Assembly (NCBI GenBank): GCA_965231015.1
Contig: OZ246408.1
Coordinates: 481,237-545,236 of the forward strand
Length of the DNA: 64,000 bases
Direction: 5' to 3'
Origin: an uncultured Gammaproteobacteria bacterium
GTDB taxonomy: Bacteria > Patescibacteriota > Patescibacteriia > UBA9934 > CAZDDW01
A program made the position numbers and the translations under genes. Each line of letters starts with the position of its first letter. The first letter of the stretch is position 1. The notes beneath the pieces were generated by a model that did no database searches, was not told the origin of the DNA, and saw only the letters and a program-made list of their open reading frames with translations. Shown here one piece after another: positions 11,725-55,419 of this stretch.

Positions 11725-11830
11725 ACCTTGCCACGCTCTAAATCAAAAACAAAAATCACCCTACGTTCTTTAAACCCAAACCCACCCTCAATTGAAATCA
11801 ATCGAAGGTGAGTGGGTTGGACCTAAACTT

Positions 11831-11905
11831 TGGTGGACCCAACGAGAATTGAACTCGTGTTTCCCGGTACTCAAACGGGTGGGCTAACCATTACCCCATG
11901 GGCCC
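11831..11905 (-). tRNA. tRNA gene with encoded CCA; class I (short variable arm); anticodon loop UUGAGUA giving anticodon GAG by hand-fold, isotype uncertain
   Basis: The reverse complement reads GGGCCCATGGGGTAATGGTTAGCCCACCCGTTTGAGTACCGGGAAACACGAGTTCAATTCTCGTTGGGTCCACCA. It has a 7-bp acceptor stem, a D-arm with GG, a T-arm ACGAG/TTCAATT/CTCGT, and U8, A14, U33. Confidence 0.75.
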
Positions 11906-11938
11906 TGGCCCACAGCCTAGGATGTTTTTCAACAAAAA

Positions 11939-11968
11939 AACTCCTTCTGTAAAAAGGGGAGTTCTTTT
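11939..11968. terminator. hairpin (AACTCCT..GGGAGTT) flanked by A-run / T-run; bidirectional terminator-like
   Basis: It sits between the tRNA and the 12056 operon. There is an A7 run on one side and T4 on the other. Confidence 0.4.
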
Positions 11969-12055
11969 GGAGTACCGGGAATGGGACCATGAGTTGGTAC
12001 CACCCGTTCATAAATAGATTTAATCACGAAAAAGTGCTAATGTCAAGGCACTGAT

Positions 12056-12580
12056 GTGGACAATATGCCTCGATCTAAGCCAAAAAAAGTGACTGTGAAC
12101 GATAAGATGCAGAAGAGTTACCGCTACGAGCTGACGGAACCGTCAGGTCGGAATTTTGATCCCGAATTTAAGCCAGATCTCACGCCTGCGCAAATGCTTA
12201 AGATGGGCGTGTTTGGAGGGAAGTACATGACCGATTGTAAAAAAGAATTTCCGGCTAGTTGGTTTAAAGGTGCCAAGCTGAACTCGAAGCATCATGATCC
12301 GACACTCAATTTTTTCAAGATAGACGCGTCTCAACGTCTCGCGGTCTGGCAAGAAAAAGGTTGGATTCATCCGGATGACCCACGCGGCTGGTTCCAGTGG
12401 TACTGCCGGTATTACATGGGTCGACGACACGAAGATGATGAGCGACAAATCAAACGCTGGAAAGCCATGACGCGCCACGTGGCGCAGGTCAAAAAGAACT
12501 GTGCCAAGGGAGACAAAAAGTGCCACCCGCGCCAGCGCCAAGCCCTGCTTCATTGGGCGTATGATTCACGCAAATTTTAA
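12056..12580 (+). CDS. conserved-looking hypothetical protein (174 aa; motif GWIHPDDPRGWFQWYCRYYMGRR), moderately GC-rich
   Basis: It is clearly coding, with low complexity absent and conserved-looking aromatic motifs. It is 2 nt from the next gene. Confidence 0.6.
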   Translation: MDNMPRSKPKKVTVNDKMQKSYRYELTEPSGRNFDPEFKPDLTPAQMLKMGVFGGKYMTDCKKEFPASWFKGAKLNSKHHDPTLNFFKIDASQRLAVWQEKGWIHPDDPRGWFQWYCRYYMGRRHEDDERQIKRWKAMTRHVAQVKKNCAKGDKKCHPRQRQALLHWAYDSRKF

Positions 12581-12582
12581 CT

Positions 12583-14316
12583 ATGTCCAAAACCCCCAAC
12601 TACGACGCGAAAGTTAAAGCTATCCTCGACGAGCTCACGCCCGGCGAGCGGGTTTGTGAGTTGACCGGGGAGAAGTGGAAGATGACCGAGCGAGAGATTA
12701 GTTGGTACAAAAAGTTCAACGTCCCGCCATCCAAGTACTCGCCGCTCACACGATGGCGGCTCATGACGTCTTTCTTCTGTGGTTGGCAATGGTGGTATAA
12801 TCCGCACCCGAAAACAGGGAAGCCGGTGTTGAGTTATATCCATCCAGCAAGCGGATACAAGGTGCTGCCAGATAATGAGTGGTATGATACAGACTTCAGT
12901 GAAATATCTGCGAAATATAATCCCGATCGTTCGTTTTTTGAACAATTTGACGAGTTTAATAAACAAATTCCTCAATCTGCATCCAAAGATGTAAAGGAAT
13001 CCTATAATTCAATCACAGTAGTTTCGCTTGGAGATGAGGATAGCTATTTTGTTTTAGCCAGCAACACCAAGCGGTCAATCAATTGTTCTTGTGCCAAAGA
13101 TACAGAGGACTCGGCAGAAGTTTATTGGTCAACGAAGGTTCAGAAGTCATATAATATTGTTAATTCACACCGGGTTCATAATTGTAAATATTTACGTGAA
13201 TGTTTTAATTGCCTTAATTCATCTTTTTTGTTTGATTGTAGAGATTGTGAAGATTGTTTTGGGGCTGCTAACAAGCGTCACAAAAAGTACTTATGGTTTA
13301 ATGAACAATTGAGTGAGGGTGAATACCGTCAAAGATTAAAAGAAGTTGATCTCAGTTGTCGCTCCGGGCTTGAAAAATACATTGAGCGTTTCAAAACAAT
13401 GATTACCGAAGAAAGTGTTTGGCCAGAAAATTTTAATGATGCCGTTGAAAACTGTACGGGTGAATATCTTGAAGGGTGCACCGATCTTGATTATTGTTTT
13501 GCCTGCAATCCCGGATCAAGAAACTTGTATTATTGTTCCTTTGTCCACGGTGCTTCCAATGATTGTGCTTTTTGTTGTGGCCCGCACTCGAGTAATTTAT
13601 GTTATTACACCATTCCGTCAGAGTGTTCAAGATCATATTTTTGTTATGAGACTTTCAAATGCAGTAATGTTGAATATTGCATGAATTGTATTAATTGTGA
13701 ACATTGTTTTGCATGTTCCGGTTTACAACACAAAAGGTTTTGTATCTTTAATCGGCAATATCCAGAATCAGAGTATTGGCAAAAGCTCGATGAGATTAAA
13801 TCAAACATGCTCGAGCAAGGAGATTACGGCGAATTTTTTCCCGCCCAGTATGCGCCTGGTTATTTTCCTGATGCAGGGGCTCTCGTTTTTGATGCTCAGG
13901 ATATGGGCAAAAAGTTTGGTGCATTAGAATACGACCCTGAATCGCTTGGTGCTATTGGGGAAGAACTCGCCGATATCTCGAAGATGCGAGACACAAGCGA
14001 AGTACCCGACTGTATTGATGAAATGGCCTTGGATGACTGGACTGACATTCCGGTGTATGATTCAAAGATTAATCGGCGGTTTTCTTATTTGCGCCCGGAA
14101 ATAGATTTTTATAAAAAGAACAGGATCGCTCCGCCCAATGTGCATTTTATTCCACGGGTTAAGCAGTTATACTGGGAAGGGAACACAGGAGTATTTGTTG
14201 ATGCTCGTTGTGCCAAATGTGATCAGGAAATTATGGTGGCTCGAAATAAGACCTACCCAAACCGAACTATCTATTGCAAACCTTGTTACCTAGAGTATCT
14301 TGAACAATATGGGTAA
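12583..14316 (+). CDS. cysteine-rich protein with 7-residue periodic repeats (Cys at fixed heptad position) and C-terminal CxxC...CxxC zinc-ribbon
   Basis: In this 577-aa protein, residues ~165-400 form heptads with Cys repeatedly at the 4th position. Examples are INCSCAK / FNCLNSS / FLFDCRD / CEDCFGA and VENCTGE / YLEGCTD / LDYCFAC / YYCSFVH / FCCGPHS / YCMNCIN / CEHCFAC. There is no signal peptide. Confidence 0.65.
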   Translation: MSKTPNYDAKVKAILDELTPGERVCELTGEKWKMTEREISWYKKFNVPPSKYSPLTRWRLMTSFFCGWQWWYNPHPKTGKPVLSYIHPASGYKVLPDNEWYDTDFSEISAKYNPDRSFFEQFDEFNKQIPQSASKDVKESYNSITVVSLGDEDSYFVLASNTKRSINCSCAKDTEDSAEVYWSTKVQKSYNIVNSHRVHNCKYLRECFNCLNSSFLFDCRDCEDCFGAANKRHKKYLWFNEQLSEGEYRQRLKEVDLSCRSGLEKYIERFKTMITEESVWPENFNDAVENCTGEYLEGCTDLDYCFACNPGSRNLYYCSFVHGASNDCAFCCGPHSSNLCYYTIPSECSRSYFCYETFKCSNVEYCMNCINCEHCFACSGLQHKRFCIFNRQYPESEYWQKLDEIKSNMLEQGDYGEFFPAQYAPGYFPDAGALVFDAQDMGKKFGALEYDPESLGAIGEELADISKMRDTSEVPDCIDEMALDDWTDIPVYDSKINRRFSYLRPEIDFYKKNRIAPPNVHFIPRVKQLYWEGNTGVFVDARCAKCDQEIMVARNKTYPNRTIYCKPCYLEYLEQYG

Positions 14317-15895
14317 GCTGTCAAAACACTTCATTCCGAATGAACAAAGGAATCCACTGATCTCACAATTTGTTGGACCGTTGTTTTGGATTGTCTTGAG
14401 CTCGGTCTTGGTCGCGCATGTGGTTTCGTTCTTCACCCTCGGCACAGTGGCCGAATCGGTCATGGTGGTGGTAATCGGGGTTTTGGTGTTTGGTTTAAGC
14501 CTGTGGAAGCTTGAATATGGGCTTTATTTTGCCTTTGCAGAGCTATTTGTGGGCTCACATGGTCACTTATTCGATTTCGGGTGGTTCAGCGTAAGAATGG
14601 CCATTTTTGCGGCCGTGATGTTGGCTTGGTTGGTCAAATTTGTTACTCGCCGGATCGATTTCTTTTTGAAGGATTACCGGATTTATCCGTATTTACTGTT
14701 GGTTGTGTCCGTGATTATCGGAACCGCGGTCGGGCTTGTGGCCGGAAACGATAAAATGGACGTGTTTAATGACATGAACGCCTATTTGTTTCTTGGGTAT
14801 TTATTGCCAGTGCTTTCGATCCGTTGGACAGCGCTTCGTAAGCGCTCGCTTTTAGAGGTGCTGGCTGCCGGCGGAGCCTGGATCGTGGTCGAGTCACTGG
14901 CTCTGTTCTACGTGTTCACGCACGCGAGCGAAGACTTAGAGCGATTACTTTACATTTTTTTCCGTGACGCTCGTATTGCTGAAATTACACGAGTCTCCGG
15001 AGATGTGTTTCGGGTGTTCATGCAGTCACAGTTCACAGTTGTGATTGTGCTCATAATTGCCACGGCCGCACTTTTTTACTTGTGGCAACGTCACGTTAAT
15101 CGTAACTTTATTGCCTTGTCGTTGATCGGACTTTGGGCTGCAGTAATTTTGAGTATGTCACGCAGTTTCTGGGTCGGCCTCGCAGCCGGACTTGGTGTGC
15201 TAGGATTGTTTGTTCTTTTTAGTAAGGGGTATGGATTTGGAAAATTTGTCACGCGAGTTTTTCTCTCGGTTCTCATGCTTGGATCCGGCGTGTTGCTGCT
15301 TTGGAACTTGTTGGCTGTACCATTTCCGCAAGCGCTTGGGGTAGGGGACTTTGGTTCGATCTTGTCGTCCCGAGCCACAGACTTGGACGAGGCCGCAGCC
15401 CGAAGTCGTTGGAGTTTGATTGGGCCAATGATGGAACAGATTGGGCAGAGCCCGCTTGCTGGACGCGGATTTGGTACCATTGTTGAATATGAATCAGATG
15501 ATCCACGCGTACAAAAATTCTATGGTGGAGTTGCTACTACGTATGCATTTGAATGGGGGTTCCTGGATCTGTGGCTAAAGATGGGACTGCTCGGTCTGGC
15601 TGCATTTGTTTGGATCTTTGTGATGTATATTCGTTCACTCTTTGGTGCGGCTAAGACCGAGGAACACGGTTGGCTTATGCTCGCGCTTGGTTGCGGACTC
15701 ATTGCCCTTTATGCTACCCATATTTTTTCACCATACTTGAATCATCCAATCGGGCTCGGGTTTTTGGTCTTCCTAATGCCATTTTTAGATCTGACTCATC
15801 CTCATTTTTCCTTCGAATCAATTAAGGAAACCGTTAAGCAAAAAACTGCTGTGCAAACAACCACCCCGGCCATGACTTCAAAGATTGTGGATTAA
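14300..15895 (+). CDS. O-antigen ligase (Wzy_C/WaaL) family membrane protein
   Basis: It is a multi-TM protein. The central loop has an SMSRSFWVGLAAGLGVLGLFVLF motif typical of Wzy_C. It overlaps the previous gene by 17 nt. Confidence 0.6.
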   Translation: MNNMGKLSKHFIPNEQRNPLISQFVGPLFWIVLSSVLVAHVVSFFTLGTVAESVMVVVIGVLVFGLSLWKLEYGLYFAFAELFVGSHGHLFDFGWFSVRMAIFAAVMLAWLVKFVTRRIDFFLKDYRIYPYLLLVVSVIIGTAVGLVAGNDKMDVFNDMNAYLFLGYLLPVLSIRWTALRKRSLLEVLAAGGAWIVVESLALFYVFTHASEDLERLLYIFFRDARIAEITRVSGDVFRVFMQSQFTVVIVLIIATAALFYLWQRHVNRNFIALSLIGLWAAVILSMSRSFWVGLAAGLGVLGLFVLFSKGYGFGKFVTRVFLSVLMLGSGVLLLWNLLAVPFPQALGVGDFGSILSSRATDLDEAAARSRWSLIGPMMEQIGQSPLAGRGFGTIVEYESDDPRVQKFYGGVATTYAFEWGFLDLWLKMGLLGLAAFVWIFVMYIRSLFGAAKTEEHGWLMLALGCGLIALYATHIFSPYLNHPIGLGFLVFLMPFLDLTHPHFSFESIKETVKQKTAVQTTTPAMTSKIVD

Positions 15896-16046
15896 GATTT
15901 CCACAATCTTAATCTTGACGATCAGGTCAAACCGTGTTAAACAGAAAATAGATTATAAAAGACTCCCCAATTTTTTTTGCGGAGTTTTTATTTTCAAAAA
16001 CAGTTGTATAAACAGTTCGATCGCATCATATTTAGAACCAAAGACA

Positions 16047-16541
16047 ATGTCTGAAATTAAGGAAACATTTCTGGATTTGCTACACTTGGCTGGTATGGCA
16101 ATGAGTAATGGTCGGCATATGCCTTCGACCATGTTTTTAGATCGCGAGTCATATAACAGATGGTGTGAAATACAGGAAAGAAAGAAGATGAAACGCTTCA
16201 AATATGAAATAAAACGGCAGAATATTCTTAAAATAGAAGAGAGACACAATGAGATAATTTTACATATATCGCAAAAAGGAAAGCTTGAAGCCCTGAAACA
16301 GCAGATAATGAGCACAGAAGATGAACTACCAAAAGGACAATTGTGTGTTGTGAGTTACGATATTCCAGAGATTGCAAAAAAGAGCAGGGCGGTTTTTCGG
16401 GGGTTTTTAAAACGATCAGGATTTGCTCAGTTGCATAAAAGCACCTGGCATACGAGAAAAAATGTTGTTAAAACACTTAAGCAGTTGATCGATAAACTAG
16501 AGATCAATGAATGGGTTTCTGTTTTTCATGTTGTTGGTTAG
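16047..16541 (+). CDS. PaaX-like mini regulator (wHTH + Cas2-fold domain), paralog of 6316..6813
   Basis: It begins MSEIKETFLDLLHLAGMAMSNGRHMPSTMFLDRESY, versus MSETIEMLKDLMHMTGVALSSGRHMPSTSILSRASY in copy 1. The C-terminus reads LCVVSYDIPEIAKKSRAVFRGFLKRSGFAQLHKSTWHT. The tracked ORF starts upstream at 15885; the ATG at 16047 is preferred. Confidence 0.55.
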   Translation: MSEIKETFLDLLHLAGMAMSNGRHMPSTMFLDRESYNRWCEIQERKKMKRFKYEIKRQNILKIEERHNEIILHISQKGKLEALKQQIMSTEDELPKGQLCVVSYDIPEIAKKSRAVFRGFLKRSGFAQLHKSTWHTRKNVVKTLKQLIDKLEINEWVSVFHVVG

Positions 16542-31939: not shown

Positions 31940-33178
31940 ATGTCAAAAAAGCTTGTTATCTTTACACTGTTTGCCACCCTGATTATACCGTTAGGTTCAA
32001 TTCAGTTATTTGCCGCTGAAACGGATGTAACTGAGGACATTGACGAAATTAATGAGGATATTGAAGAAAAACAAACTCGGATTGATGAAATTGATCGGCG
32101 CATGAATCAGTATCAAAGTGAGATTGATGCGGCTCAGGATCAGGAAATTACGCTTTCTAATGAGGTGGCCATGCTGGAAAACCAAATTGCGTTAACCGAG
32201 CTCGACATTGAGTCCACCCAGTTACAAATAGAAGAAGTAGAACTGGAAATCGCTGTTTTAGAGGTTCGGATAGGGGAGTTAGAAGATCAATTAGAACGAC
32301 AACGTGGGGTCTTAGCCTCTATTTTACGACGCATAAACGAATTTGATGATGATTCTATTTTAGAGCTTGTTTTTGGAACGGATAATTTTTCCGAACTTTT
32401 TGACCAAGTGCGTTACCTGGAAGAAGTAAACTCTGATTTGGATGATGCTTTAGAGTTGGCCCAAACCACACGAGATTCGTTTCAGCTGGAGCAGCAAAGT
32501 AGGGAAGAGCGGTTAGAGCGTTTGGTGGTGCTGGGAGAAGAACTGGAAGGGGAGCAGTTGCGTTTGGAGCATGAAATGGCGGCGAAAGAGGTTTTGATTG
32601 CCGAGGCTCAGTATTCAGAGGCTCAGTTTTCAACACTGCTTTACGAGTTGCGTCAAGAACAGCAATATGTCGATCAACAGGTGGCTCAGTTGCAACGTGA
32701 AATTGAATCTTTGCTTTATGAGCACGACGAAATTGGAGACGCTACAGTATTAACTTGGCCGTTAGATCCAAGTTATCGTGGTATTTCAGCATACTTTCAT
32801 GATCCAACCTATCCATTCCGTCATTTGTTTGAGCACTCCGGTATAGACATTCCAGCCCCACAAGGTTCAGTCATTGTATCTCCGGCACCTGGTTATGTGG
32901 CTTGGGTTAAACAGGGTCGTTCATACGGAAATTACGTCATGATCATTCATGCCAATGGTTTAGCCACTCTGTACGCCCACTTGTCTCAGCCGCTTGTGGA
33001 AGCAGATCAGTTTGTGACTCGCGGAGAGACAATTGCGTTATCAGGTGGCATGCCAGGCACAAGTGGTGCCGGGTTGTCTACCGGGCCGCATCTTCACTTT
33101 GAGGTTCGCTTGAACGGTATTCCGGTCAACCCAATGAATTACATGATTGATACTTATATTCCGGACTATCCGGGTTAA
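31940..33178 (+). CDS. M23-family metallopeptidase with N-terminal signal/TM and long coiled-coil (EnvC/NlpD-like)
   Basis: The C-terminal LytM domain carries HxxxD and HxH motifs (YGNYVMIIHANGLATLYAHL, GPHLHFEV). Confidence 0.85.
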   Translation: MSKKLVIFTLFATLIIPLGSIQLFAAETDVTEDIDEINEDIEEKQTRIDEIDRRMNQYQSEIDAAQDQEITLSNEVAMLENQIALTELDIESTQLQIEEVELEIAVLEVRIGELEDQLERQRGVLASILRRINEFDDDSILELVFGTDNFSELFDQVRYLEEVNSDLDDALELAQTTRDSFQLEQQSREERLERLVVLGEELEGEQLRLEHEMAAKEVLIAEAQYSEAQFSTLLYELRQEQQYVDQQVAQLQREIESLLYEHDEIGDATVLTWPLDPSYRGISAYFHDPTYPFRHLFEHSGIDIPAPQGSVIVSPAPGYVAWVKQGRSYGNYVMIIHANGLATLYAHLSQPLVEADQFVTRGETIALSGGMPGTSGAGLSTGPHLHFEVRLNGIPVNPMNYMIDTYIPDYPG

Positions 33179-33183
33179 TACAT

Positions 33184-33384
33184 ATGGATTCAATTTGGAA
33201 ATTAGTTTTATATCTTGGAATCGTTTTCTTCTTCTTACCGCTTTCATTATTTGTCGGTTTATCCGTGATGATGATGAAAGAGTTAATGGACGAGGAAGAC
33301 ACTGTTAAGACAATAATCATGACCGGCTTTTTTGTTATGATGGCCGGTGCGTTAATGTTGTTGCTCTACTACTTGCTACACTAA
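33184..33384 (+). CDS. small two-TM membrane protein (66 aa)
   Basis: It is a hydrophobic ORF directly after the M23 gene and is followed by a terminator. Confidence 0.45.
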   Translation: MDSIWKLVLYLGIVFFFLPLSLFVGLSVMMMKELMDEEDTVKTIIMTGFFVMMAGALMLLLYYLLH

Positions 33385-33413
33385 TATTTTCCGACACATA
33401 ATAAAACGACACA

Positions 33414-33439
33414 CCTCCCCGGGGTAGGGGAGGTTTTTT
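33414..33439 (+). terminator. Rho-independent terminator (CCTCCCCGGGGTAGGGGAGG + T6)
   Basis: A GC stem is followed by TTTTTT. Confidence 0.8.
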
Positions 33440-34044
33440 AATTGTATCGATCCTAAGTCTTAAGTATAAAAAATAAAGTTCCACATCACGAAATTTTTTT
33501 ATCTGATTTAATAGTTTCTCAAGAATCCCAAAGGGGGATAACGGGAAACACCATAATAAATAAGAAATCTAGGGTCGCACAATATATGTTAGACGACGCT
33601 TAATAAAGCGTTTAAGCCTGACGTTTTTCATGTTTATTAAGCGTTTGTCTAACATTCGGAACATTGTTACGGCACAAAAATGCAAAATAAGTTTTGTGAT
33701 CGTAAAATGTTCCTTGGCGCGTTTATATGCTTCAAATCGAAGTTTTATTTGCGGAAATACATTTTTTCACTTTATCTTTAATTCTTTATACTTTTTGTTA
33801 TTTCGAGAGGTATGTAGATACCTCCCAAATTCAAATACGGCAAATTTGAGCGTCACAAATAAACAAGTTTCATAAAAATCAAATTGAAAACCACCAATAC
33901 AAAATTAAGCTCGTATCAGTGATTATTTTGTTTTATGGTTGTTTCTAGGTATCAACAGCAATCAAAATCATTGTTTTCCATACCTCTCCTCTTCCCTGTA
34001 GGTACACCTCCTGATTATGTGTCGTAAAATACATCAATAAGTTT

Positions 34045-34527
34045 TTAATAGAACTTTAACGATTCTATTATTAAAAACATGTTGTCATTATATTCGTATC
34101 CAGAAAAGACAAACCAACCATGATCAGTCTCACGTATCACATGCGTCACTTCATTTGCTGCCGGATCCATTCCCGTTCCTACTAACCGAGTCATTTCAAC
34201 ATCATCAATCTTTGCTCCGTCTTTAGTTTCAACGTTCAGGTGTGACTCGATTAAACCGGTTGGATCGTCATCAGTGAAGACTTGCAGTGTCACAGTCTCG
34301 CTACTGGTTTTGTCATAAAACTTAATTAAACTGGCCGTGGCATCTTCTTCAAAATCCCAACCATTTGGAAATGAGAGTTCAAACGTTGTTTCGGTAAAGT
34401 CATTATTTATATAGAAAAGGCTTGAGTCAGATGGCTCGTATCGCGACACTCGAACTGGCTCGGCAGATGATTTACATCCACCCCCAAGTAAAATAAGGGC
34501 TAAACTAAAAAATATAATTTTTTTCAT
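34045..34527 (-). CDS. lipoprotein, hypothetical (signal peptide + lipobox LLGGGC)
   Basis: It begins MKKIIFFSLALILLGGGCKS. Confidence 0.65.
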   Translation of the reverse strand: MKKIIFFSLALILLGGGCKSSAEPVRVSRYEPSDSSLFYINNDFTETTFELSFPNGWDFEEDATASLIKFYDKTSSETVTLQVFTDDDPTGLIESHLNVETKDGAKIDDVEMTRLVGTGMDPAANEVTHVIRETDHGWFVFSGYEYNDNMFLIIESLKFY

Positions 34528-34618
34528 ATAAATCTATTTTAGCAGAAATCAAAAGACTCCACCAAGGTGGAATCTTTTGATCGGGCTCTTCATAACGAGA
34601 CCCTTAGCTTTTTGAGTA

Positions 34619-34768
34619 TTACTCAGCAGCAGGAGCTTCTGGAGCACCTTCAGCTGGAGCCTCAGGAGTAGCTTCACCTTCAGCAGGTGCAGCATTCTCC
34701 TCAGCTGGAGCGTCAGCCGTAGGCTGTGCGTCATCACCAGCTGGCATATCGTCGAAGAACATAGTCAT
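34619..34768 (-). CDS. small acidic Pro/Ala/Glu-rich protein (about 50 aa), hypothetical
   Basis: The sequence is MTMFFDDMPAGDDAQPTADAPAEENAAPAEGEATPEAPAEGAPEAPAAE. It is GC-rich and low-complexity, and could be spurious. Confidence 0.25.
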   Translation of the reverse strand: MTMFFDDMPAGDDAQPTADAPAEENAAPAEGEATPEAPAEGAPEAPAAE

Positions 34769-34853
34769 AATCGGGTTAATTCTTATGTTCTGGCCTACAA
34801 GAGACCGCCTGAAGTATATCATTGACTTCAAATAAGGTCAAGCTCAGTATCAG

Positions 34854-36152
34854 CTATTTTTTCCTTAAAATACGCTTAGTAAGGTCTTTGCTCACCTGTA
34901 CCCCGGGTTGATTGTATGTGTTTACACCAAGTAATTCCCCCATAAACGCTGTGGCTGTTTCATAAAACTGAAACAGTGCACCTAGTGATTCTGGGCTAAT
35001 TTTAGGTATTTCTATCGTTCCATTCGGCTGTTTTACTTTTGTAAGAGCCTTTTCAGTCCCCTTTTGCTCGGCCTGAATGATTTTACTCATTTTTTGACCT
35101 AAAAAGTATGAAATTTTGCTAATTTTAGCATATTTTTTAGGTATGACAAGGTCGGATCTGTATGATTTGGGGATAATAAAGGTAAAAACCTTGTCTGCTG
35201 GGCCATCTGTGTATAATTGGAGCTGAGAGTGCTGATCCGTAGCTCCGAGAGCCGCCACCGGAGTTGGTCCAATATTGCGTCTTCCTTTGATTTTACCCAG
35301 TGATTCCGCCCAGAGTTGTCGGTACCAGAGAGAAAACTCTCTAAGCGAATCAGCATACGGCATCAGTACATTGATTCTTTGTTGCCGTTTTTCATAAGCT
35401 AAATAATGTAGAGCGGCAAATTTGGCTGCAGAGCAGCGGACTCCTAGTTTTTTGCGTTCTTCTTCAATGGTTCGAGCACCCTTCTGAAGCCCTGATATAT
35501 TGATTCCAGCACAGGCGGCAGGAAAAAGTCCAACCGTAGAAAGAACGGCAAAACGACCACTGACATTCAGTGGGTGTGGAATCAACGTATATCCTTCTTC
35601 TTTGGCTATTTGTTCTAAGACACCACCGTTTATATCAGTTGTGGCCCAAATATGGTCTTTGTGATTTTTTTGTCCAACCTTTTTGATTAGTGCTTCTTGC
35701 AGAATGAAAAAAGCAGACATGGTTTCTATTGTAGAACCTGATTTAGAGACCACGTTAATGGCGGTCTTTTTCAGATCGATTGAGTTCATGAGGACGGATA
35801 AAGTTTCCGGGTCAGTGTTTCCACCGGCAAAATAAAGGTTTACCCCATCCGAATCTATTTTTAGTGCTTGCCAAATAGCCCGGGCTCCTAAATCTGAACC
35901 GCCAATACCTACCACGATTAAATTCTTGAACCGGGTTTGTACTTTTTTTGCCTCTTTATTGACCAGACGAGGTGTTTGTTTGTCGTATGGCAAATCCATG
36001 AACCCCTGTTCCCCACTCTCTTTTAATTTGCTCAGACTTTGGTTGGCCCGTTTTAGTTTTGGTTGGATTTTTTTTAGTTCAGTTGTTGTTGCACCGAATG
36101 ATTTAACCTGGCCAGACATCATGTTAGCGGTCTTGTATTTTAAATATGGCAT
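34854..36152 (-). CDS. pgi: glucose-6-phosphate isomerase
   Basis: It has the sugar-isomerase motifs LIVVGIGGSDLGARA and the PGI fold. The tracked ORF is longer; the start was set to avoid a 38-nt overlap with ftsQ. Confidence 0.8.
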   Translation of the reverse strand: MPYLKYKTANMMSGQVKSFGATTTELKKIQPKLKRANQSLSKLKESGEQGFMDLPYDKQTPRLVNKEAKKVQTRFKNLIVVGIGGSDLGARAIWQALKIDSDGVNLYFAGGNTDPETLSVLMNSIDLKKTAINVVSKSGSTIETMSAFFILQEALIKKVGQKNHKDHIWATTDINGGVLEQIAKEEGYTLIPHPLNVSGRFAVLSTVGLFPAACAGINISGLQKGARTIEEERKKLGVRCSAAKFAALHYLAYEKRQQRINVLMPYADSLREFSLWYRQLWAESLGKIKGRRNIGPTPVAALGATDQHSQLQLYTDGPADKVFTFIIPKSYRSDLVIPKKYAKISKISYFLGQKMSKIIQAEQKGTEKALTKVKQPNGTIEIPKISPESLGALFQFYETATAFMGELLGVNTYNQPGVQVSKDLTKRILRKK

Positions 36153-45943: not shown

Positions 45944-46240
45944 GGCGGCTATGCGACGTGGTCCGGAGACGAGCTTACTCGTCGACGGGCCATGTCCGCA
46001 TAGCTGACTGTTGTGCGATGTCGCGTAGCGACGAGCGCAACAAAAGGCGTAGCCGCCGGCCGTTGTGGCGAAGGAGCGAAGCGATTTCGCCACAACGTTC
46101 GCGTATATCTGATGTTTTGCGGAGCGTAGCGGAGCAAAATATGGGAGAGCGACGGCAGGAGCGAACCAGATATACGCTGTTGTGCGAGGGTGAGCGACGA
46201 TAGGAGCGAAAGTGCAACGACCCCGAAGCGTATTTTTCAA
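45944..46240. repeat. GC-rich repeat element R2 (core module A + modules C and D)
   Basis: See R1. The core 45944..46115 is nearly identical. Confidence 0.8.
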
Positions 46241-46359
46241 TATTTTTTCATTCTTTATTATTTTGTTGAAGAATTTTATTATTATTTGGAATTTTTATTT
46301 TTTCGTTTTTCTTTTTCCAAGAGGGATTAGGGGTGAATTGGAAAAAGAAAAACACCTTA

Positions 46360-47840
46360 CTAAAAAAATCCTCTCATTTTCTCAATAGACTGTTTTAGCT
46401 GTTTTATATCGGGTTTTCCATTATCTTTTTGATGATGAATTTGATTTCTCAAAAATGTATGAATAGTTACTTCATTTTGATTTCCTTTCCATGGAGAATC
46501 TTTTGTTTCTTGTTTTTCACTTTGAAAATAATCTATATCAAATTTTTTGATTGCTTTAGTAATGGTTTCCTTTGTTCCGTCTTTTTTTTCTATTTCTTCT
46601 TGTCCATGTTTAAATATTAATTCTTCGTATAATTCGTTGTGATATTCTTCAGTTGCTAACCCAAAAGCAATAAAATTTACTTCGTTAGCTGAAACATATG
46701 GTAAAACTCTTTTTTCTAATTCTAAAATTTTTACTTCTTCATTTTCTTTCTCTAAGCAATGAATTTGAATTTTGCTATTGTCATTATTTAATGTTTGTTT
46801 AACAAAAAGTGGAGAGTGAGTAGAAAATAGAAATTGATTTTTTTCAGAAATTGAAACTATGTGGTTAATAAAATTATTTTGTAAATCTGGGTGCAAATGT
46901 AGTTCTGGCTCATCAATTAAAATCAAAATGTTTTCTTTTGAAATTTCTGCCATTGTTTCTAAAAATAATAAGGAAACAACCATTTCAACACCTGATCCAA
47001 GTTGAGATATCGGCAAATCTAAACTTTCTAATTTTTGAGAAAGAAAAGCACTATCAAAAGGTGCGTTACAATCAATTAGTGAAAGATCTGCTTTCGGTAA
47101 GCCGACTTTTTCAAGTTTTTCGTTTAATGTCTGAAATGTTTTTTGTTGTGATTTTTCGTCAATTTTTTCTAAAACGCTTGTTTCAAAATTATTTTTTTGA
47201 GTTGTAAATTTTTCTCCGTCAAAATCTTCCTTTGTTTCATTTTTTTTATTTCTTTATTAAATCTCCAATTAAAATCTTCAAAAACTGACGAAATGGAAGA
47301 ATTAAACCCTCTCTGTAATTGTTTTTCTCTGTTTTTTGGAAAATAAAAACTTTTTGGCAACCCTTCTGATTCCAAAGGAAAAGATAACTGTCTTTCATCA
47401 AATTTAAATTTTGTTCCTGTCCCTCTTGTTATCTCCCAGCCATTTTCATTATCTTTTTCTCTGTTTGGTAAAACATAATGAGACACAACAACAATATCTG
47501 AAAATGCTTTTTTAGGAGTTGCCCTATCTCTCTTTTTTATTTCCAAGCAAACTTTACTGCATTCAACATCTTGTTTAGTATAGCCGTCAGGTAAAAAGAT
47601 TTTAAAGTTTTCATTAAATTCTAAAATAATCTTTATTTCAACATCTTCGCCTTTATAAAAATCTGTATGTTTTATTCTTCCTGATAAAAAATAAGGAGAA
47701 AGACAAAAATTTATTGCTTCCAAAATAGAGGTTTTACTTGTTCCATTTTCACCAACAAGCAAAGAAAGATTTTTTAGTTCAAAATCTTTTAATTCTTTTA
47801 TGCCTCTAAAATTTTGGATTGTGATTGTCTTTATCTTCAT
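46360..47840 (-). pseudogene. AAA_21/ABC-like ATPase (OLD/RecF-type) disrupted by frameshift(s): N-part 47169..47840, C-part 46360..47016
   Basis: The N-terminal part has Walker A (LLVGENGTSKTSILEAINF). The C-terminal part has the signature and Walker B (SQLGSGVEMV...LILIDEPELHLHP...STHSPLF). The roughly 150-nt gap between them contains T8 homopolymers. Confidence 0.55.
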
Positions 47841-47860
47841 AACTTTTTTATTTAAAAAAT

Positions 47861-48943
47861 CTAAACTCCCACAAAATATCTATTCTCTTCTTTTGTGGCA
47901 AAAACTTTTTCTTCTTTTTTCTTGTGTATCGATTCTGTTTTTGGCGTTTGATTCATTTTTTCATTCTTCTGTATTCTTTTATTTCTGATTAAAATTCTAA
48001 AATATGGACATTTTCCATTTATAGACAAATCTTTTTCGTCATTTCCTTTTCTGAATTTAATTATTTCAAACTGATCTGGGTTGAATTTATGTAAAAAAGT
48101 TATCGGTACACCCATAACACCTGAATAATCCAAAGGAATATTTTGTGTTTTATTCACATTAATTCCATGATAATTATCATAATGAGGATACTCAGTTTCG
48201 TTTCCAAAATATTTCTTAGTAAGAGGAATATCTTCGTGTCTTTTAGAAGTATCTAAATTGGTGAGCCATAGACAATTATTTGGGGAGACTATTCTATTTC
48301 CAAAGTCATCAATACGGGCTTCTGTTCCATAAAGCTCATAATGTTCTGGAACAATAAAGCCTGAAATACCTCTACCTAGATTTATTCCTAACCACGCTTT
48401 ACTTCTCTTAATTAATTTAAAAATTTCTTTGTAGGTTATAGCATTAATATTGCCAATAATCAGAAATTTCTTATCATATTTAACCAATTGATCTACGTGC
48501 TCTCTAAATAATGAAAATGGTGGATTAGTAACAACTATATCGGATTGTTTTAATAACTGGATACTTTCCGCACTACGAAAGTCCCCATCCCCTTTAAAGT
48601 GAACAATATCATCTGAACTTGGCTTTGTTTTTTCATCTTGAGCACCTGTATATTCATAAAAAAATCCACATTCAGATACCTCAGTATTAAATAAATTTCT
48701 TTCTTGTTTTTTATAACAAGCCGCTATTAATTTTTTAAGTCCTAGCTCTTTGAAGTTTAAAGCAAAATAATGAAAAAAATTACTAATTTTTGGATCATCG
48801 CAATTACAAAAAACCACTTTGTTTTTAAAATGATCTTTATAATGTTGCAATTCGCTTTCTATATCTGAAAGTTGAGTGTAAAACTCATCACTTTTTGATT
48901 TTTTAGCTTTTTGCAGTAATGTATTTGTTGCATTTCTTGCCAT
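47861..48943 (-). CDS. N6-adenine DNA methyltransferase, M.EcoRI family
   Basis: The N-terminus MARNATNTLLQKAKKSKSDEFYTQ...VVFCNCDDP is near-identical to M.EcoRI as recalled. The NPPF motif is present (IVVTNPPFSLF), and the C-terminus reads GKCPYFRILIRNKRIQK. Confidence 0.85.
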   Translation of the reverse strand: MARNATNTLLQKAKKSKSDEFYTQLSDIESELQHYKDHFKNKVVFCNCDDPKISNFFHYFALNFKELGLKKLIAACYKKQERNLFNTEVSECGFFYEYTGAQDEKTKPSSDDIVHFKGDGDFRSAESIQLLKQSDIVVTNPPFSLFREHVDQLVKYDKKFLIIGNINAITYKEIFKLIKRSKAWLGINLGRGISGFIVPEHYELYGTEARIDDFGNRIVSPNNCLWLTNLDTSKRHEDIPLTKKYFGNETEYPHYDNYHGINVNKTQNIPLDYSGVMGVPITFLHKFNPDQFEIIKFRKGNDEKDLSINGKCPYFRILIRNKRIQKNEKMNQTPKTESIHKKKEEKVFATKEENRYFVGV

Positions 48944-48970
48944 AATCAAATTTTATAAATAAAATTTTAG

Positions 48971-49806
48971 TTATTTGCTCTTAGTTATCTGTTTAAATAT
49001 TTCACTTCCTAATACTTGAAGAGAGGTTTTTGAAATCTCAATCATAATGTTAAACATCTCTTTTGCATCCCATTTTTCTCCATTGCCTTGTGTATATATT
49101 GAAGTTGCCTGAAGCATAATTGTTTTATCTTTGTGTTTAACAAATTTATTTTTACACAGATTAGTATTAATTGGCATTCCATAATTTGCAGAGGTCAGCC
49201 TATCTAACCTATTTAACATTCCTGAATTGTATTCAAGTGTCACAACCCTTCCATCAGGTCTTTTAATTGAAATAGTTTCTGTTAAAAAATTTGACCCCTC
49301 CAAAAATAAGATATATGGAAAATGGGATTCATATAGCATAAAGTTGGCAATTTCTGATATGTTTTTATGTGATCTTTCTATCGCGTTACCGGCAGCCATC
49401 AAGTCTTGATTGTTGTTTATACCAACTTGATTTCCTTTCAGTATATTTTCAATGTCTTTCCCTTGATGTTTAGCCTCCGTTACAAGTAATACTCTCCAAT
49501 TATCGCTATCGTCTTTTACTTCTATTATTCCGCCATCAGGTTTAATGCTTGAATTTGATACAAAAATAGTTTGTCCTAACTCTGGATCAATTTTCTTTAA
49601 TGCTTCGTTTATTTCTTCCTTTTTTATGCTTGTTCTATATCTAAAAGATAATTGAGGAAATTCTTTTTCAAGTTGTTCAATTACAAGATGTGAAATTTTA
49701 CCAACACTTATATCATGCGATTTTGCGTTTTCTCCAAATATACCAACTACTCCGTGAGATTTTTATGCTGATTTGTTAATCTTTTAGATTGATTCTTTTT
49801 AGCCAT
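48971..49806 (-). pseudogene. EcoRI-family type II restriction endonuclease, N-terminal frameshift in T5/A5 run at 49760..49764
   Basis: The region downstream of the frameshift matches R.EcoRI closely: GVVGIFGENAKSHD, PQLSFRYRTSIKKEEINEALKKIDPELGQTIFVSNSSIKPDGGIIEVKDDSDNWRVLLVTEAKHQGKDI and QDLMAAGNAIERSHKNISEIANFML. The N-terminus MAKKNQSKRLTNQHKN is in the -1 frame; one extra A restores the full ORF. Confidence 0.8.
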
Positions 49807-49894
49807 ATTGTTTTTTGAATAAGTAAGGTGTCTTTATTATAGTGTTTTTTTATAAAAATTTAAAATTCATTTTTTGCGGAAGTATGAAGCAAAA

Positions 49895-49918
49895 AATACC
49901 ATATATCCCCCTCATTAA
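49895..49918 (-). promoter_or_regulatory. motif ATGAGGGGGATATATGGTA (minus sense) about 110 nt upstream of the EcoRI-like R start; related copies upstream of C gene
   Basis: The same about 19-nt motif occurs twice at 56629..56647 and 56681..56697. Confidence 0.4.
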
Positions 49919-49981
49919 AATAAAAATTCCATTCCTTTTTAAATTCTTCAACAAAATTCTTTATTTGAGAAAAAATATTGA

Positions 49982-50150
49982 AAAATATGTCGCACAACGT
50001 TAGGGCTATACGAAGTTTTTCGACCGAAGGGAGAAAAATTTGGAGAAATGGCGAGCCGAGCCATTTCTCGTATAGCCCTTGTTATACGAGGGTGAGCGAC
50101 CAACGGGAGCGAAAGCGCAGCGTCCCCTTGCGTATGACGCAGGCAGGCGA
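49982..50150. repeat. partial repeat R3' (modules sharing AAAAATATGTCGCNNAACGTT and GAGGGTGAGCGAC..GGAGCGAAAG with R2 and 44539..44600)
   Basis: The same sub-modules occur in R2 and at 44539..44600, as seen by eye. Confidence 0.5.
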
Positions 50151-50156
50151 TTTTCG

Positions 50157-50936
50157 TCAGTCCATCTTTTTCATTGGTTTATTGGGATCAACATTATCAT
50201 AATAAAAGTCAAAACCCAGCTCATCAAAAATATTCTCAAATTCTGTAAATACTTGTTCCACCACTTTCTGAAGTTTGGCAAAATTTTGGTACTCACCATT
50301 AATAATGATTTGGAGTAAGTCGTCAAAATGCTCAGGCTTCTTTTTGAATTTCTTTGCTTCTTCTATGAATTTTGCAAATGTTGTATAAGGCTTCTGATTT
50401 AGAAAAGTTAATGTTATTAACATGTAATTGCACATGTCAAATACCAAAAGGGAAATGCCAAGTTTGTTTTTTTTCGTGATAGCATTTAGAACTTTAGCAG
50501 TTGATTCTTGTAGGTCTCCGAAGTGATGAATGATCTGCTTGTGACACTTTTCTTTAAGGTTCTTAACTTTGTAATTGTTGAGACGATCTATAAAAGGTTT
50601 ATTGATGAGTGGAAGTAATTTATCAGAACCGGAAAGAAACCAATCAGGCGTGGGCTCTTTCACTGTTTTTATGTATGAGTCTTTAGTCATCCAAACCAGT
50701 TCAACCAGAAGACCATCACGGATTTTGCCCATGCCCGCCCAGGTTTTACCTCTTGGCATTTCCCGAACAAATGCAATTAACTCTAAATCAGAATAGCCAA
50801 AATCTTCGTTTCTAGCAAAAGAAGCCTGAGCCGCTAATGCAATAAGATTTTTGCCAAACTTCTTTTTGATAAGTGGAACAAGTTCTTTAACTACTTGCTC
50901 TCTTTCTTTATGAGAATATTTTTGTAGACCACGCAT
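50157..50936 (-). CDS. nucleotidyltransferase of the ANT(4')/KNTase/Lnu superfamily (NTase domain + KNTase_C-like helical domain)
   Basis: The sequence KEREQVVKELVPLIKKKFGKNLIALAAQASFARNEDFGYSDLELIAFV matches the pol-beta-type NTase motif ([GA]S...SD[LI]E[LM]). The protein is 259 aa. Confidence 0.6.
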   Translation of the reverse strand: MRGLQKYSHKEREQVVKELVPLIKKKFGKNLIALAAQASFARNEDFGYSDLELIAFVREMPRGKTWAGMGKIRDGLLVELVWMTKDSYIKTVKEPTPDWFLSGSDKLLPLINKPFIDRLNNYKVKNLKEKCHKQIIHHFGDLQESTAKVLNAITKKNKLGISLLVFDMCNYMLITLTFLNQKPYTTFAKFIEEAKKFKKKPEHFDDLLQIIINGEYQNFAKLQKVVEQVFTEFENIFDELGFDFYYDNVDPNKPMKKMD

Positions 50937-51014
50937 AGTGTTAGATAGTTTATATTAGTATATAAATATTGCTGGGTTTTGACCATCTTAGAAAATCGCC
51001 TGCCGAGTAATATT

Positions 51015-51300
51015 TCGTATAACGGCCGGCGGCTATGCGACGTGGTCCGGAGACGAGCTTACTCGTCGACGGGCCATGTCCGCATAGCTGACTGTTGTGC
51101 GATGTCGCGTAGCGACGAGCGCAACAAAAGGCGTAGCCGCCGGCCGTTGTGGCGAAGGAGCGAAGCGATTTCGCCACAACGTACCTGCGTATGCGATGTT
51201 TGCCAGTGGTATAATTGCACGAAGTGCTTACCACTGGCAAATATGGGTGGAGGCTTGCGGAGGTACGGAGCAAGCCGTAACCGCATACGCAGTGTTAGCT
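51015..51300. repeat. GC-rich repeat element R3 (core module A + module B)
   Basis: See R1. The core 51020..51185 is nearly identical. Confidence 0.8.
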
Positions 51301-51364
51301 GATGTATTCCTTTTCTTTTCGACGATAGTCGTTTGTTTTAAAAATTTTCAAATTTCTTTTTCCG

Positions 51365-51473
51365 TTTTGGGTGGTGGGCAGAGGGGAATTAAAGGGGTGA
51401 ATGCCCGCCACCCAAAACACCTATTTCTGTTTGAGGGAGGGGCAAGAGGGGAACAAAAGGGGTGAATTGCCCC
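51365..51473 (-). terminator. two tandem GC-rich hairpins directly after the Ppl-like gene stop, loops sharing GAGGGGAAYWAAAGGGGTGAAT
   Basis: Hairpin 1 is TTTTGGGTGGTGGGC..GCCCGCCACCCAAAA. Hairpin 2 is GGGGCAA..TTGCCCC. Both are flanked by A/T runs. Confidence 0.5.
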
Positions 51474-51486
51474 GACCGAAAACATG

Positions 51487-54339: not shown

Positions 54340-54342
54340 AAA

Positions 54343-55419
54343 CTATTTGATAAATCGTATTTGCAGGTTGAGTTTGATAAACATTTCGCCGTTTTCTTCG
54401 TAAACTGTGCCGTATCCGTGGCGTGTTGCACTTGGTGATTCCATGCGAGTGTTATTAAACAAGTAATTTCGAAACGCTTCCGCATTATAAAGATGATAAC
54501 AAACGATTTCGCCGTCTTCACGAACCACAATCACTCCACCGTGGGCACGCAAGGTACCGTCCCATGCACTGGCGGGAACCATTCCGAGAGCTGCATTATT
54601 GAGTAATGCTTTGATTTTGTAGGCGTAGTCTTCGGTGGAAAGTTTGAAATTCAAAATTTGCATTTTTTCATCTTGCAAGTGTTGCAATAATTCCGGGAAA
54701 GTTGCGCCTTTGTCAGAGAAATAAGCCAAAAGAACTTCCGCCATTATTTCTGGCATGATCGTGTCGATTTTTCGTAAGTTTCGCTCGAAAACTTCGGAAT
54801 CAATGCCGTGAAACGCAAACGCTCCGCCCGCTTCACGAATTGCGAAAAGGCGATCACGAATTTTTGCCTTTGTATCAATTGTATTTATTTCTTCAATTTT
54901 TCGTTCATCAAGTCCTGTGATTTTGTATGTAAAGTTAGTTGCTCCCGAAGCGTTGAGAAGTGTTGCGGGTGAACCGAGTTTTGATTTGATACTGAATCCT
55001 ATTTCGTGATCTCGTCCGATCGTGTGATCATGGACTTTCAAAATCAAATCTTCTTTCCGTGCATTTCCGGCATTGAGGGTTTTTATTCCAAAGCGTTCAA
55101 AAAGTTCGTCCGCAAGTGGGACGGAAAAGGTTTGTGATTTTTCTTTAATCTCCGCAAATACTTCAACGACTTTCGATTTCAAATCGGAGGTGTCTACGAT
55201 TGTGGTTTCGCCGTCAATGTGCAAGATTTTCACTTTTTCTCCTTCTTGCAATTCGTATTCCGATTTCCCCTCGGTCTCCTCACGGATTATTTTCAAAATT
55301 GGAAAAAAGACCGCTTCGATTTTTTCGAGTTCTTCATCAGCTCCGATGATTTTTTTATCGACGAGAAGTTTTATAAAAGCATAAAACTCGCTCCATTCGC
55401 CTTTATTTCCTGTGATCAT
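54343..55419 (-). CDS. type II restriction endonuclease candidate (HpaII-like family by N-terminal GNKGEWSE.Y...KLL pattern; assignment tentative)
   Basis: It lies immediately downstream of, and 3'-overlapping, a C5-MTase in a C-M-R arrangement. Motifs GNKGEWSEFYAFIKLL and SIKSKLGSPATLLNASGATNFTYKI are present. Confidence 0.5.
   Translation of the reverse strand: MITGNKGEWSEFYAFIKLLVDKKIIGADEELEKIEAVFFPILKIIREETEGKSEYELQEGEKVKILHIDGETTIVDTSDLKSKVVEVFAEIKEKSQTFSVPLADELFERFGIKTLNAGNARKEDLILKVHDHTIGRDHEIGFSIKSKLGSPATLLNASGATNFTYKITGLDERKIEEINTIDTKAKIRDRLFAIREAGGAFAFHGIDSEVFERNLRKIDTIMPEIMAEVLLAYFSDKGATFPELLQHLQDEKMQILNFKLSTEDYAYKIKALLNNAALGMVPASAWDGTLRAHGGVIVVREDGEIVCYHLYNAEAFRNYLFNNTRMESPSATRHGYGTVYEENGEMFIKLNLQIRFIK

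Follow-up and report, generated by a model that had tools for sequence, protein, structure and literature searches.

Do two adjacent genes that resemble a dedicated operon form one functional module, or is their adjacency a peculiarity of a single lineage? The question is raised by positions 12,056 to 14,316 of a 64,000-nucleotide stretch of contig OZ246408.1 (assembly GCA_965231015.1, positions 481,237 to 545,236, forward strand), which originates from an uncultured bacterium placed by GTDB in the Patescibacteriota; this whole stretch is referred to here as the window. Gene A (12056..12580, + strand) encodes 174 aa when read from its GTG start, and gene B (12583..14316, + strand) encodes 577 aa, with the stop codon of A and the start codon of B separated by 2 nt. 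A first-pass annotation gave the same span, lengths, and gap for these open reading frames (ORFs), and read them as a functional pair in which a conserved partner accompanies a Cys-rich scaffold. We find that A is a solitary, horizontally spread gene unrelated to B, and that the window B is a dispersed orphan singleton of a family that forms tandem arrays. This family, which is large, restricted to Patescibacteria, and without informative annotation, may supply clients or adaptors to ATPases resembling type IV coupling proteins (T4CPs).

Composition and Repeat Register of Protein B

Protein B contains 34 Cys, or 5.9% of its residues. Across 34 long, non-overlapping ORFs in the window the median is 0.6%, and the ORF ranking second reaches 1.9%. 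The Cys richness seen at first pass is thus exceptional, although the count of ~45 given there was too high. The protein is acidic (isoelectric point, pI, 5.2; net charge -18), and direct reading of its N-terminus (MSKTPNYDAKVKAILDELTPGERV...) reveals no hydrophobic stretch. This hydrophilic start gives no sign of a signal peptide, in agreement with the earlier reading.

The Cys had been described as recurring with strict seven-residue periodicity. To quantify spacing, pairs of Cys no more than 24 residues apart within residues 160-400 were compared with random placement. Multiples of three account for 68% of the spacings (33% at random, p<0.0002) and multiples of six for 35% (16% at random, p=0.0008). 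Multiples of seven account for just 9%, compared with 12% at random (p=0.82). The mod-7 classes of the Cys are flat and the Fourier peak lies at period 3, which replaces the heptad with a register of three and six. The strings quoted in support of the heptad (YLEGCTD, LDYCFAC, and YCMNCIN) are all present in B. Laid out in hexads, residues 189-230 read SYNIVN/SHRVHN/CKYLRE/CFNCLN/SSFLFD/CRDCED/CFGAAN and residues 348-383 read CSRSYF/CYETFK/CSNVEY/CMNCIN/CEHCFA/CSGLQH, with Cys or Ser at the turn, a hydrophobic residue or Cys in mid-strand, and Asn or Asp at position 6. B is accordingly described as a cytoplasmic, acidic protein with solenoids on a six-residue register.

Not all of these Cys are equivalent in evolution. 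Among 59 aligned relatives, ~14 of the 34 are Cys in at least 80% of sequences: C25; C210, C219, C222, and C225; C369, C372, C375, C378, and C387; and C543, C546, C565, and C568. The Cys of the ladder itself are kept in just 7-66% of relatives, with many positions exchanging between Cys, Ser, and Asn, and members of the family have a median of 26 Cys.

Domain Architecture and Fold

An AlphaFold2 (AF2) model built from the 59 relatives has a predicted local distance difference test score (pLDDT) of 87.5 and a predicted template modeling score (pTM) of 0.88. It arranges B as an alpha/beta N-terminal module, a solenoid, helices, a second Cys-rich region, a further helix, and an alpha/beta C-terminal domain that carries a hairpin-hairpin-helix ribbon. 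Comparison of alignment pieces from the wide family by HHalign relates the N-terminal to the C-terminal module (probability 99.6%, E 2e-23) and the first solenoid to the second (probability 99.9%, E 1.5e-35), while cross-controls stay below 1% probability. B is thus internally duplicated in the order ribbon module, beta-solenoid, beta-solenoid, ribbon module. The Cys-ladder solenoid offered among the first-pass suggestions consequently survives as a fold class. Its period and the conservation of its ladder do not.

The N-terminal module (residues 1-130; 12583..12972, + strand) repeats the C-terminal ribbon module in degenerate form. Among distant relatives it carries CxxC...CPxCR, one distant member giving a weak zf_Tbcl match, and the wide-family alignment shows that the clade of the window retains C25 alone. 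Beta-solenoid 1 (residues 131-240; 12973..13302, + strand) is modeled with four-residue strands every six residues and ends in the conserved Cys cap C210, C219, C222, and C225 (nt 13210-13257). It is followed, 3' of a conserved FNEQL..EY cap motif, by a helical linker (residues 241-285; 13303..13437, + strand) with AF2 helices at 245-253 and 260-276. Beta-solenoid 2 (residues 286-392; 13438..13758, + strand), homologous to solenoid 1, is modeled with pLDDT 63-73. Its body (286-362) is variable and acidic, with an entropy of 2.68 bits, compared with 1.20 bits for its cap, in which CxxC is repeated (C366, C369, C372, C375, C378, and C387; nt 13678-13743). Within residues 393-540 (13759..14202, + strand), a conserved helix (393-419) gives way to an acidic stretch that varies (420-470) and then to the start of the C-terminal module, which reads F.I...E..FY.K...PP..H..R and contains the invariant residues D493, R498, E506, H521, and R525.

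The C-terminal element (residues 541-577; 14203..14313, + strand) looks, from its sequence, like a zinc ribbon or treble clef. The first-pass annotation had correctly placed a CxxC ribbon here (C543/C546 and C565/C568), with a spacer given as 17 residues that proves to be 18. C543, C546, and C565 are Cys in 59 of the 59 aligned relatives and C568 in 81%, and the AF2 strands at 538-542, 549-553, and 562-564 are followed by a helix. The arrangement of CxxC...CxxC, beta-hairpins, and then a helix resembles that of zf_Tbcl (PF13451), zf_Tbcl_2 (PF23477), zf-dskA_traR (PF01258), S27e, and LIM. All scores of the B family nonetheless fall below Pfam gathering thresholds: the C-terminus of B matches zf-dskA_traR at E 0.011 (16.1 bits, under the 24.9-bit cutoff), the relative P0343 matches zf_Tbcl_2 at 21.5 (cutoff 27), and a profile search of the PDB places S27e and LIM ribbons at a sub-threshold E of 0.3-0.7. 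B differs further from these domains in that the ribbon constitutes ~6% of the protein and that, in the clade of the window, the Cys of the N-terminal copy are lost apart from C25.

Binding of a metal or cluster, which had been suggested at first pass, is plausible for B from these motifs. One form of this idea is that B is a redox or Fe-S protein whose cap runs, CxxCxxC(xxC), bind [4Fe-4S] or similar clusters for electron transfer or as a cluster scaffold. The conserved runs C219-x2-C222-x2-C225 and C366-x2-C369-x2-C372-x2-C375-x2-C378 in a cytoplasmic protein with 5.9% Cys are what such a function would predict. The motif CxxCxxCxxC of B, however, differs in spacing from the ferredoxin CxxCxxCxxxCP and lacks its CP, and neither Pfam nor NCBIfam yields a match to Fer4 or any other Fe-S family. 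The exchange of many Cys positions with Ser or Asn is a better fit to a structural ladder than to ligands, and a redox carrier encoded by dozens of diverged paralogues in each genome would be unusual where metabolism is minimal. We therefore consider an Fe-S function quite improbable.

The solenoid invites comparison with two groups of known beta-helices. With the Hexapep left-handed beta-helix proteins (LpxA, GlmU, DapD, gamma-carbonic anhydrase, and dynactin p27), B shares a six-residue periodicity and a solenoid fold. The textbook Hexapep consensus is [LIV]-[GAED]-x2-[STAV]-x. Read by eye, the B hexad differs from it in having its small residue at i+3 rather than i+4, and a Pfam scan of B at E<=1 contains no Hexapep (PF00132) match. 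B also lacks an acyltransferase context, and its solenoids are capped by Cys clusters. The insect antifreeze beta-helices, such as Tenebrio TmAFP and spruce budworm CfAFP, are small proteins that are secreted, carry a disulfide ladder, and bind ice through Thr-x-Thr faces. In contrast, B is 577 aa long, lacks both a signal peptide and TxT arrays, and can replace most of its ladder Cys by Ser or Asn. B could also be conceived as the self-assembling subunit of a bactofilin- or curli-like filament or scaffold, with its paralogues co-polymerizing. The ends of the solenoids are capped by Cys clusters and helices, however, and the large globular N- and C-terminal modules likewise oppose open-ended stacking; no Pfam match to bactofilin or curlin was obtained. 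Self-assembly is, in our judgment, very unlikely.

Overall, the view that B is unlike known motifs stands. Nothing above threshold is returned for it by Pfam, NCBIfam, PHROGs, or PADLOC, sequence and profile searches of the PDB give no related solved structure, and no membership in a known family with established function emerged. In P0355 (731 aa), a distant family member, the complete B architecture is preceded at the N-terminus by a fused GNAT acetyltransferase domain.

A Patescibacterial Family Encoded in Tandem Arrays

Close homologues of B number 692, nearly all from Candidatus Uhrbacteria or unclassified Patescibacteria, and an exhaustive profile search retrieved 3559 family clusters at 50% identity, mostly full-length at ~550 aa. 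In the source records they are named only "hypothetical" or "Zinc-binding domain-containing protein". No family member was found among 2.9 million viral contigs. To examine genomic context, 67 loci were fetched with the B-family profile and added to three fetched earlier; loci from other genomes are designated by L-numbers. These ~70 loci hold ~200 B copies, an upper bound given that a few loci overlap. Copies lie head to tail and always share a strand, the longest array having nine, and the 101 adjacent B-B pairs are mostly spaced by -8 to ~+130 nt. Identity between paralogues within an array is 40-44%, which indicates old duplications that have been retained. Variation among paralogues is concentrated in residues 286-362 and 420-470, both acidic in the window B, with the Cys caps and the first 50 residues conserved.

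Between array members, genes of toxin or mobile-element type are found, always immediately 3' of a B gene and on the same strand. They encode NYN RNases (three), PemK/MazF (two), Fic/DOC (two), Bro-N (two), RhuM, a pair of DUF433 and PIN-like DUF5615, and an IS200-like element (L001 9410-9808; L002 12865-13380; L024 9581-9946; L029 11761-12177; L030 277-771; L041 1977-2792, 6468-7286, and 9121-10008; L051 2760-3406; L062 3708-4097). Just upstream of one array, a gene for a four-helix bundle resembling 23S_rRNA_IVP/bAvd was also observed (L002 6974-7345).

These interleaved genes raise the prospect that the B family belongs to an inter-genomic conflict system, in which B proteins would be antitoxins, immunity proteins, or sensors partnered with the toxins, the arrays would be defense or toxin-antitoxin islands, and A would be cargo. 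Beyond the position and strand of the toxin-type genes, this idea draws on an 8-nt overlap of the PemK and NYN genes with the B gene before them, an arrangement familiar from toxin and antitoxin genes, and on the varying contents of the slot that the window B occupies in its relatives. The same 8-nt overlap, however, occurs at B-B junctions and at the junction of B with a Wzy-type gene, and it follows from the conserved ...Y-G-stop ending of B, TATGGNTAA. Most B genes have no adjacent toxin: a toxin-type gene follows ~12 B genes, compared with 101 direct B-B junctions. The DUF433/DUF5615 insert brings both toxin and antitoxin with it, B has no PADLOC match, and the family is absent from the viral contigs searched. 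Type II antitoxins, moreover, are small and consistently encoded upstream of, and overlapping, their toxins, whereas B has 577 aa and belongs to old paralogues that each have their own orthologues, toxins follow a minority of copies, and the window B is followed by a Wzy_C gene. A conflict role is, on this evidence, unlikely, although it is the chief competitor of the reading proposed below.

Coupling-Protein-Like ATPases Upstream of the Arrays

A more consistent neighbor lies at the other end of the arrays. In 15 loci of the Uhrbacteria clade (L002, L011, L012, L014, L021, L025, L028, L032, L033, L044, L047, L057, L059, L064, and L065), a pair of ATPases, the first of ~610-710 aa and the second of ~470-530 aa, is encoded directly before the first B gene. 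A single ATPase occupies this position in loci from Giovannonibacteria, Paceibacterota, and two Saccharibacteria (L067, L070, L072, and L073), for a total of 19 loci with a T4CP-like ATPase directly upstream of B. When arrays with their upstream 4.5 kb visible were counted, the ATPase was present for 9 of 13 arrays of at least three copies, 4 of 11 doublets, and 1 of 12 singletons. By a rough estimate, the chance expectation for such adjacency is below 1% (~2 T4CP genes per ~1-Mb genome and a 3-kb span).

Pfam matches of the ATPases comprise TrwB_AAD_bind, TraG-D_C, T4SS-DNA_transf, and HerA/DUF87, with zf_Tbcl_2 on the longer protein, ATPase 1. The latter ends in a C..C...YC..C ribbon of zf_Tbcl_2 type, the type that the C-terminus of B matches weakly. 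Genes for a membrane protein of ~550-680 aa (DUF8128 in L002) and for SecDF lie 5' of the ATPases. The conserved cassette reads [SecD]-[SecF]-[~550-680-aa membrane protein]-[~650-aa ATPase with C-terminal treble-clef ribbon and disordered tail]-[~475-aa ATPase]-[B-family array].

The layout resembles known substrate repertoires. Effectors of type IV secretion systems (T4SSs) that are recognized by VirD4, and the modules downstream of EssC in type VII secretion systems, are encoded beside the secretion ATPase. The B genes are similarly variable, multicopy, and located just 3' of FtsK/VirD4-type ATPases, with toxin-type genes interspersed. They differ in that no translocation channel genes adjoin them and that B carries no known secretion signal; most t4cp genes of Patescibacteria, too, are distant from virB4 (PMC12102498). 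Within the same phylum, Patescibacteria encode arrays of VirB2 pilins, with 2-11 paralogues at a mean identity of 25% (PMC12102498), which are likewise tandem, diverged, and linked to T4SS-type genes. VirB2 pilins are small, inserted into the membrane or secreted, and encoded beside virB4; the B proteins, in contrast, are large, soluble, and encoded beside orphan T4CP-like ATPases. The same survey counted 5,713 VirD4-type T4CP homologues across 2,918 genomes of Patescibacteria, or roughly two in each, and found just 148 of them near virB4. Its authors left the role of these T4CPs open and would not exclude that they have been exapted to a different function (PMC12102498). The ATPase pairs of the cassettes described here match these approximately two orphan VirD4-type genes per genome.

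Proposed Role of the B Family

From these observations we propose that the three conserved Cys groups of B, at the two solenoid caps and in the C-terminal ribbon, are putative structural metal sites, most likely Zn(Cys)4, which would close off the solenoids and keep the ribbon together. The acidic, variable surface formed by the body of solenoid 2 and residues 420-470 would then set what each paralogue binds. Members of the family would act as clients or adaptors of the T4CP-like ATPases, that is, as a repertoire that the ATPases recognize or translocate, and orphan copies such as the window B would use the same ATPase machinery in trans. We lean slightly toward this combination of metal-capped solenoids, a paralogue-specific recognition face, and ATPase clients or adaptors; what doubt we have attaches mostly to the last step.

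Several points weigh against the proposal. What links B to the ATPases is the adjacency of their genes and a ribbon of common type. The window B itself has no ATPase nearby, as is general for singletons (1 of 12 has one). B has no recognizable secretion signal and is conserved along its whole length, unlike typical effectors, which combine a variable body with a conserved C-terminal signal. Solenoid 2 is modeled at moderate confidence (pLDDT 63-73). Judged by sequence alone, the CxxCxxC runs could equally hold Fe-S clusters, and the toxin-type genes within the arrays could point to conflict or defense. Finally, t4cp is not essential for the epibiotic growth of Ca. S. epibionticum (PMC12102498), which argues against an essential role in effector delivery.

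Synteny of the Window Copy and Its Adjacency to Gene A

The copy of B in the window resides in a polysaccharide locus. It is flanked by glycosyltransferase (GT) genes (GT4, GT2, and GT2) and by a gene for a membrane protein of the O-antigen ligase/polymerase type (Pfam Wzy_C; 14309..15895, + strand), which serves as a marker of this syntenic locus. The ATG of the Wzy_C gene probably lies inside the ...TATGGGTAA end of B, giving an overlap of 8 nt. In the closest relative, L007, the order is GT2, GT2, a 214-aa ORF, tRNA-Leu, A, tRNA-Ser, a B paralogue (B'), B, and Wzy_C; here the B orthologue is 77% identical to that of the window and the 8-nt overlap with Wzy_C recurs. In L001, whose orthologue is 70% identical, the order is radical S-adenosylmethionine (SAM) enzyme, NUDIX, B', PemK, B, a 138-aa ORF, and Fic, and A is missing. 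The other contents of the slot thus differ between close relatives. The window B is orthologous to the second L007 copy over its whole length. A chimeric origin from the two L007 copies was considered for the window B and rejected in view of this full-length orthology.

L001 also bears on a scenario raised at first pass, in which B would be the substrate of a radical-SAM or other maturase, akin to the Cys-rich precursor of a ribosomally synthesized and post-translationally modified peptide (RiPP). The radical-SAM gene there lies four genes upstream of the B orthologue, just before the NUDIX gene and the B paralogue. Radical-SAM homologues are, however, confined to this one contig among the ~70 B loci, no maturase adjoins B in the window, and a folded, multidomain protein of 577 aa is not RiPP-like. 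The scenario is scarcely credible.

The pairing of A with B can be judged from the same comparisons. The first-pass annotation proposed a dedicated two-gene module of a partner and a heptad Cys-ladder scaffold. In its favor are the common strand of A and B, their 2-nt gap, the lack of an intervening terminator, and the recurrence of the order A then B in L007, although not contiguously. Scans for promoters and terminators around the genes gave counts not above those for shuffled sequence and are consequently uninformative; A and B are probably co-transcribed, given that no space is left for separate signals. Co-occurrence across genomes, which had been suggested as a check, is limited to the window and L007 among the ~70 B loci. 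None of the 83 further A loci has a B relative or a T4CP-like ATPase nearby, and A occurs in phages and in giant-virus metagenome-assembled genomes (MAGs) as well. Conversely, ~200 other B copies are without A, including the 70% identical orthologue in L001. A segment of ~2.1 kb, comprising tRNA-Ser and B', separates A from B in L007 and is absent from the window. The 2-nt spacing thus reflects an indel that distinguishes two very close genomes and is not a conserved junction. GC content at third codon positions (GC3) also differs between the genes, at 0.55 for A and 0.40 for B. With the heptad refuted as well, we give the two-gene module very little credence indeed: since A neighbors B only in the window and its closest relative, the "operon" is a lineage-specific juxtaposition of unrelated genes.

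In the window, tRNA-Leu(GAG) (11831..11905, - strand; ARAGORN) lies 150 nt upstream of A, and in L007 A is surrounded by tRNA-Leu, an odd tRNA-like call, and tRNA-Ser. By blastn, window positions 11767-12060 match L007 2850-3188 and 4048-4330, which defines a tRNA-bearing segment of ~290 nt. This segment consists of a hairpin, a tRNA, and then ...AAAAAGTGCTAATGTCAAGG, and occurs on both sides of A in L007 and once, upstream of A, in the window. Its presence on both sides of A in L007 suggests that a tRNA-associated repeat was the site at which A was inserted or shuffled. Of 83 other A loci, 5 have a tRNA-Ser at most 500 nt from A, as does L007.

The Gene A Family

If A is not the partner of B, what is it? 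The protein probably starts at the ATG at 12065 (MPRSKPKK..., 171 aa), the position where its homologues begin. It is very basic (pI 9.85, net charge +17), and its gene is, as the first-pass annotation had remarked, richer in GC than its surroundings (GC 0.495 and GC3 0.554, compared with 0.413 and 0.401 for B and a GC of 0.42 for the window). The conserved motif GWFQWYCRYYMGRR pointed out there is present, with most positions invariant or nearly so across the family. Over 39 diverse sequences, 63 columns are invariant, including four Cys (C61, C117, C149, and C156) and seven Trp. More than 8000 relatives (clusters at 90% identity) are 70-80% identical to A, with sources that include Woesearchaeota, Kiritimatiellota, Planctomycetota, Gammaproteobacteria, and Omnitrophota; a culturable Pontiella species is among the carriers. 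No significant match to A was obtained in Pfam, NCBIfam, PHROGs, or PADLOC, or in the PDB by sequence or profile.

Genomic context offers few leads. No neighbor of A is conserved, the largest neighbor cluster occurring in 4 of 82 loci. Rare recurrent neighbors are a cyclopropane-fatty-acid synthase (CMAS; six proteins), a DUF1722/YbgA-type protein with a 2-thiouracil desulfurase (three), and TspO, DUF2177, DUF1295, and a lycopene (carotenoid) cyclase (two each), which together make a weak theme. We take this set to be typical of photolyase or photo-oxidative-stress operons and treat it only as a lead. A gene of the 23S_rRNA_IVP/bAvd-like type noted above for a B array also lies ~4.3 kb downstream of one A homologue (L005 10851-11228).

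Relatives of A are present in 24 viral contigs, four of which are giant-virus MAGs. The phage homologues (32-49% identity) belong to large or jumbo phages. In YerA41 the homologue lies beside genes for ribonucleotide reductase and dUTPase, in pVa-21 beside a thymidylate synthase gene, and in Carin-5 ~4.5 kb from a dCTP deaminase gene. YerA41 and Carin-5 are phages with hypermodified thymidine; the papers describing them make no mention of the A homologue. Our best guess, held with low confidence, is that A might be a stand-alone protein acting on nucleic acids or nucleotides that was acquired horizontally beside a tRNA gene.

Other Features of the Window

No paralogue of A or of B was found elsewhere in the window, and no T4CP-like ATPase was found in its 64 kb. 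A 218-aa ORF 3' of the Wzy-like gene (15885-16541) matches the central Cas2-like domain of PaaX (PF20803) and has a counterpart at the syntenic position in L007. Farther along, positions 46000-55500 form a low-GC island (GC 0.29-0.34, compared with 0.42 for the window) with restriction and defense genes. It encodes an AAA_15/OLD-type ATPase split into two ORFs (46360-47016 and 47169-47840), an EcoRI-type adenine methyltransferase (47861-48949), a KNTase_C protein, an SMC_N/AAA_21 ATPase of 950 aa (51487-54339), and an HpaII-type restriction endonuclease (54343-55482). The cumulative GC skew of the window climbs steadily to ~34 kb and then drops, with a turn at ~32000-36000 that could mark a replication origin, a terminus, or a switch in gene orientation.

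Implications

The locus that prompted this analysis is an ordinary juxtaposition of two unrelated genes, each from a large family without known function. The first-pass observation is confirmed in part and its interpretation supported in part: the repeat proves to be a hexad, conservation extends to a minority of the Cys, and the supposed operon partner is unrelated. The A family, very large, very conserved, and without annotation or a known fold, merits a study of its own.

A fuller scenario covering both genes can be drawn, which we regard as possible but doubtful when all its parts are taken together. An orphan pair of VirD4-type ATPases, anchored to the membrane, would recognize the zinc-capped B repertoire through a shared treble-clef module and pass it to the envelope or a T4SS as effectors or adaptors of host interaction, the window B being an extra member of that repertoire. 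Separately, A would be the first-seen member of an undescribed, near-universal fold, a basic, Trp-rich protein with four Cys that is directed at nucleic acids or nucleotides and distributed over bacteria, archaea, phages, and giant viruses.

The cassette of ATPases and B array is not described in the literature searched: searches on the B family, DUF8128, and Cys-rich families of the candidate phyla radiation returned nothing relevant, and no paper on the B family or its link to the ATPases. Patescibacteria make up a large share of bacterial diversity and live as epibionts on other microbes, with which their dealings are largely unknown. In this setting, the orphan VirD4-type ATPases of these organisms gain a concrete candidate client, and the B family gains a context in which its role can be tested.

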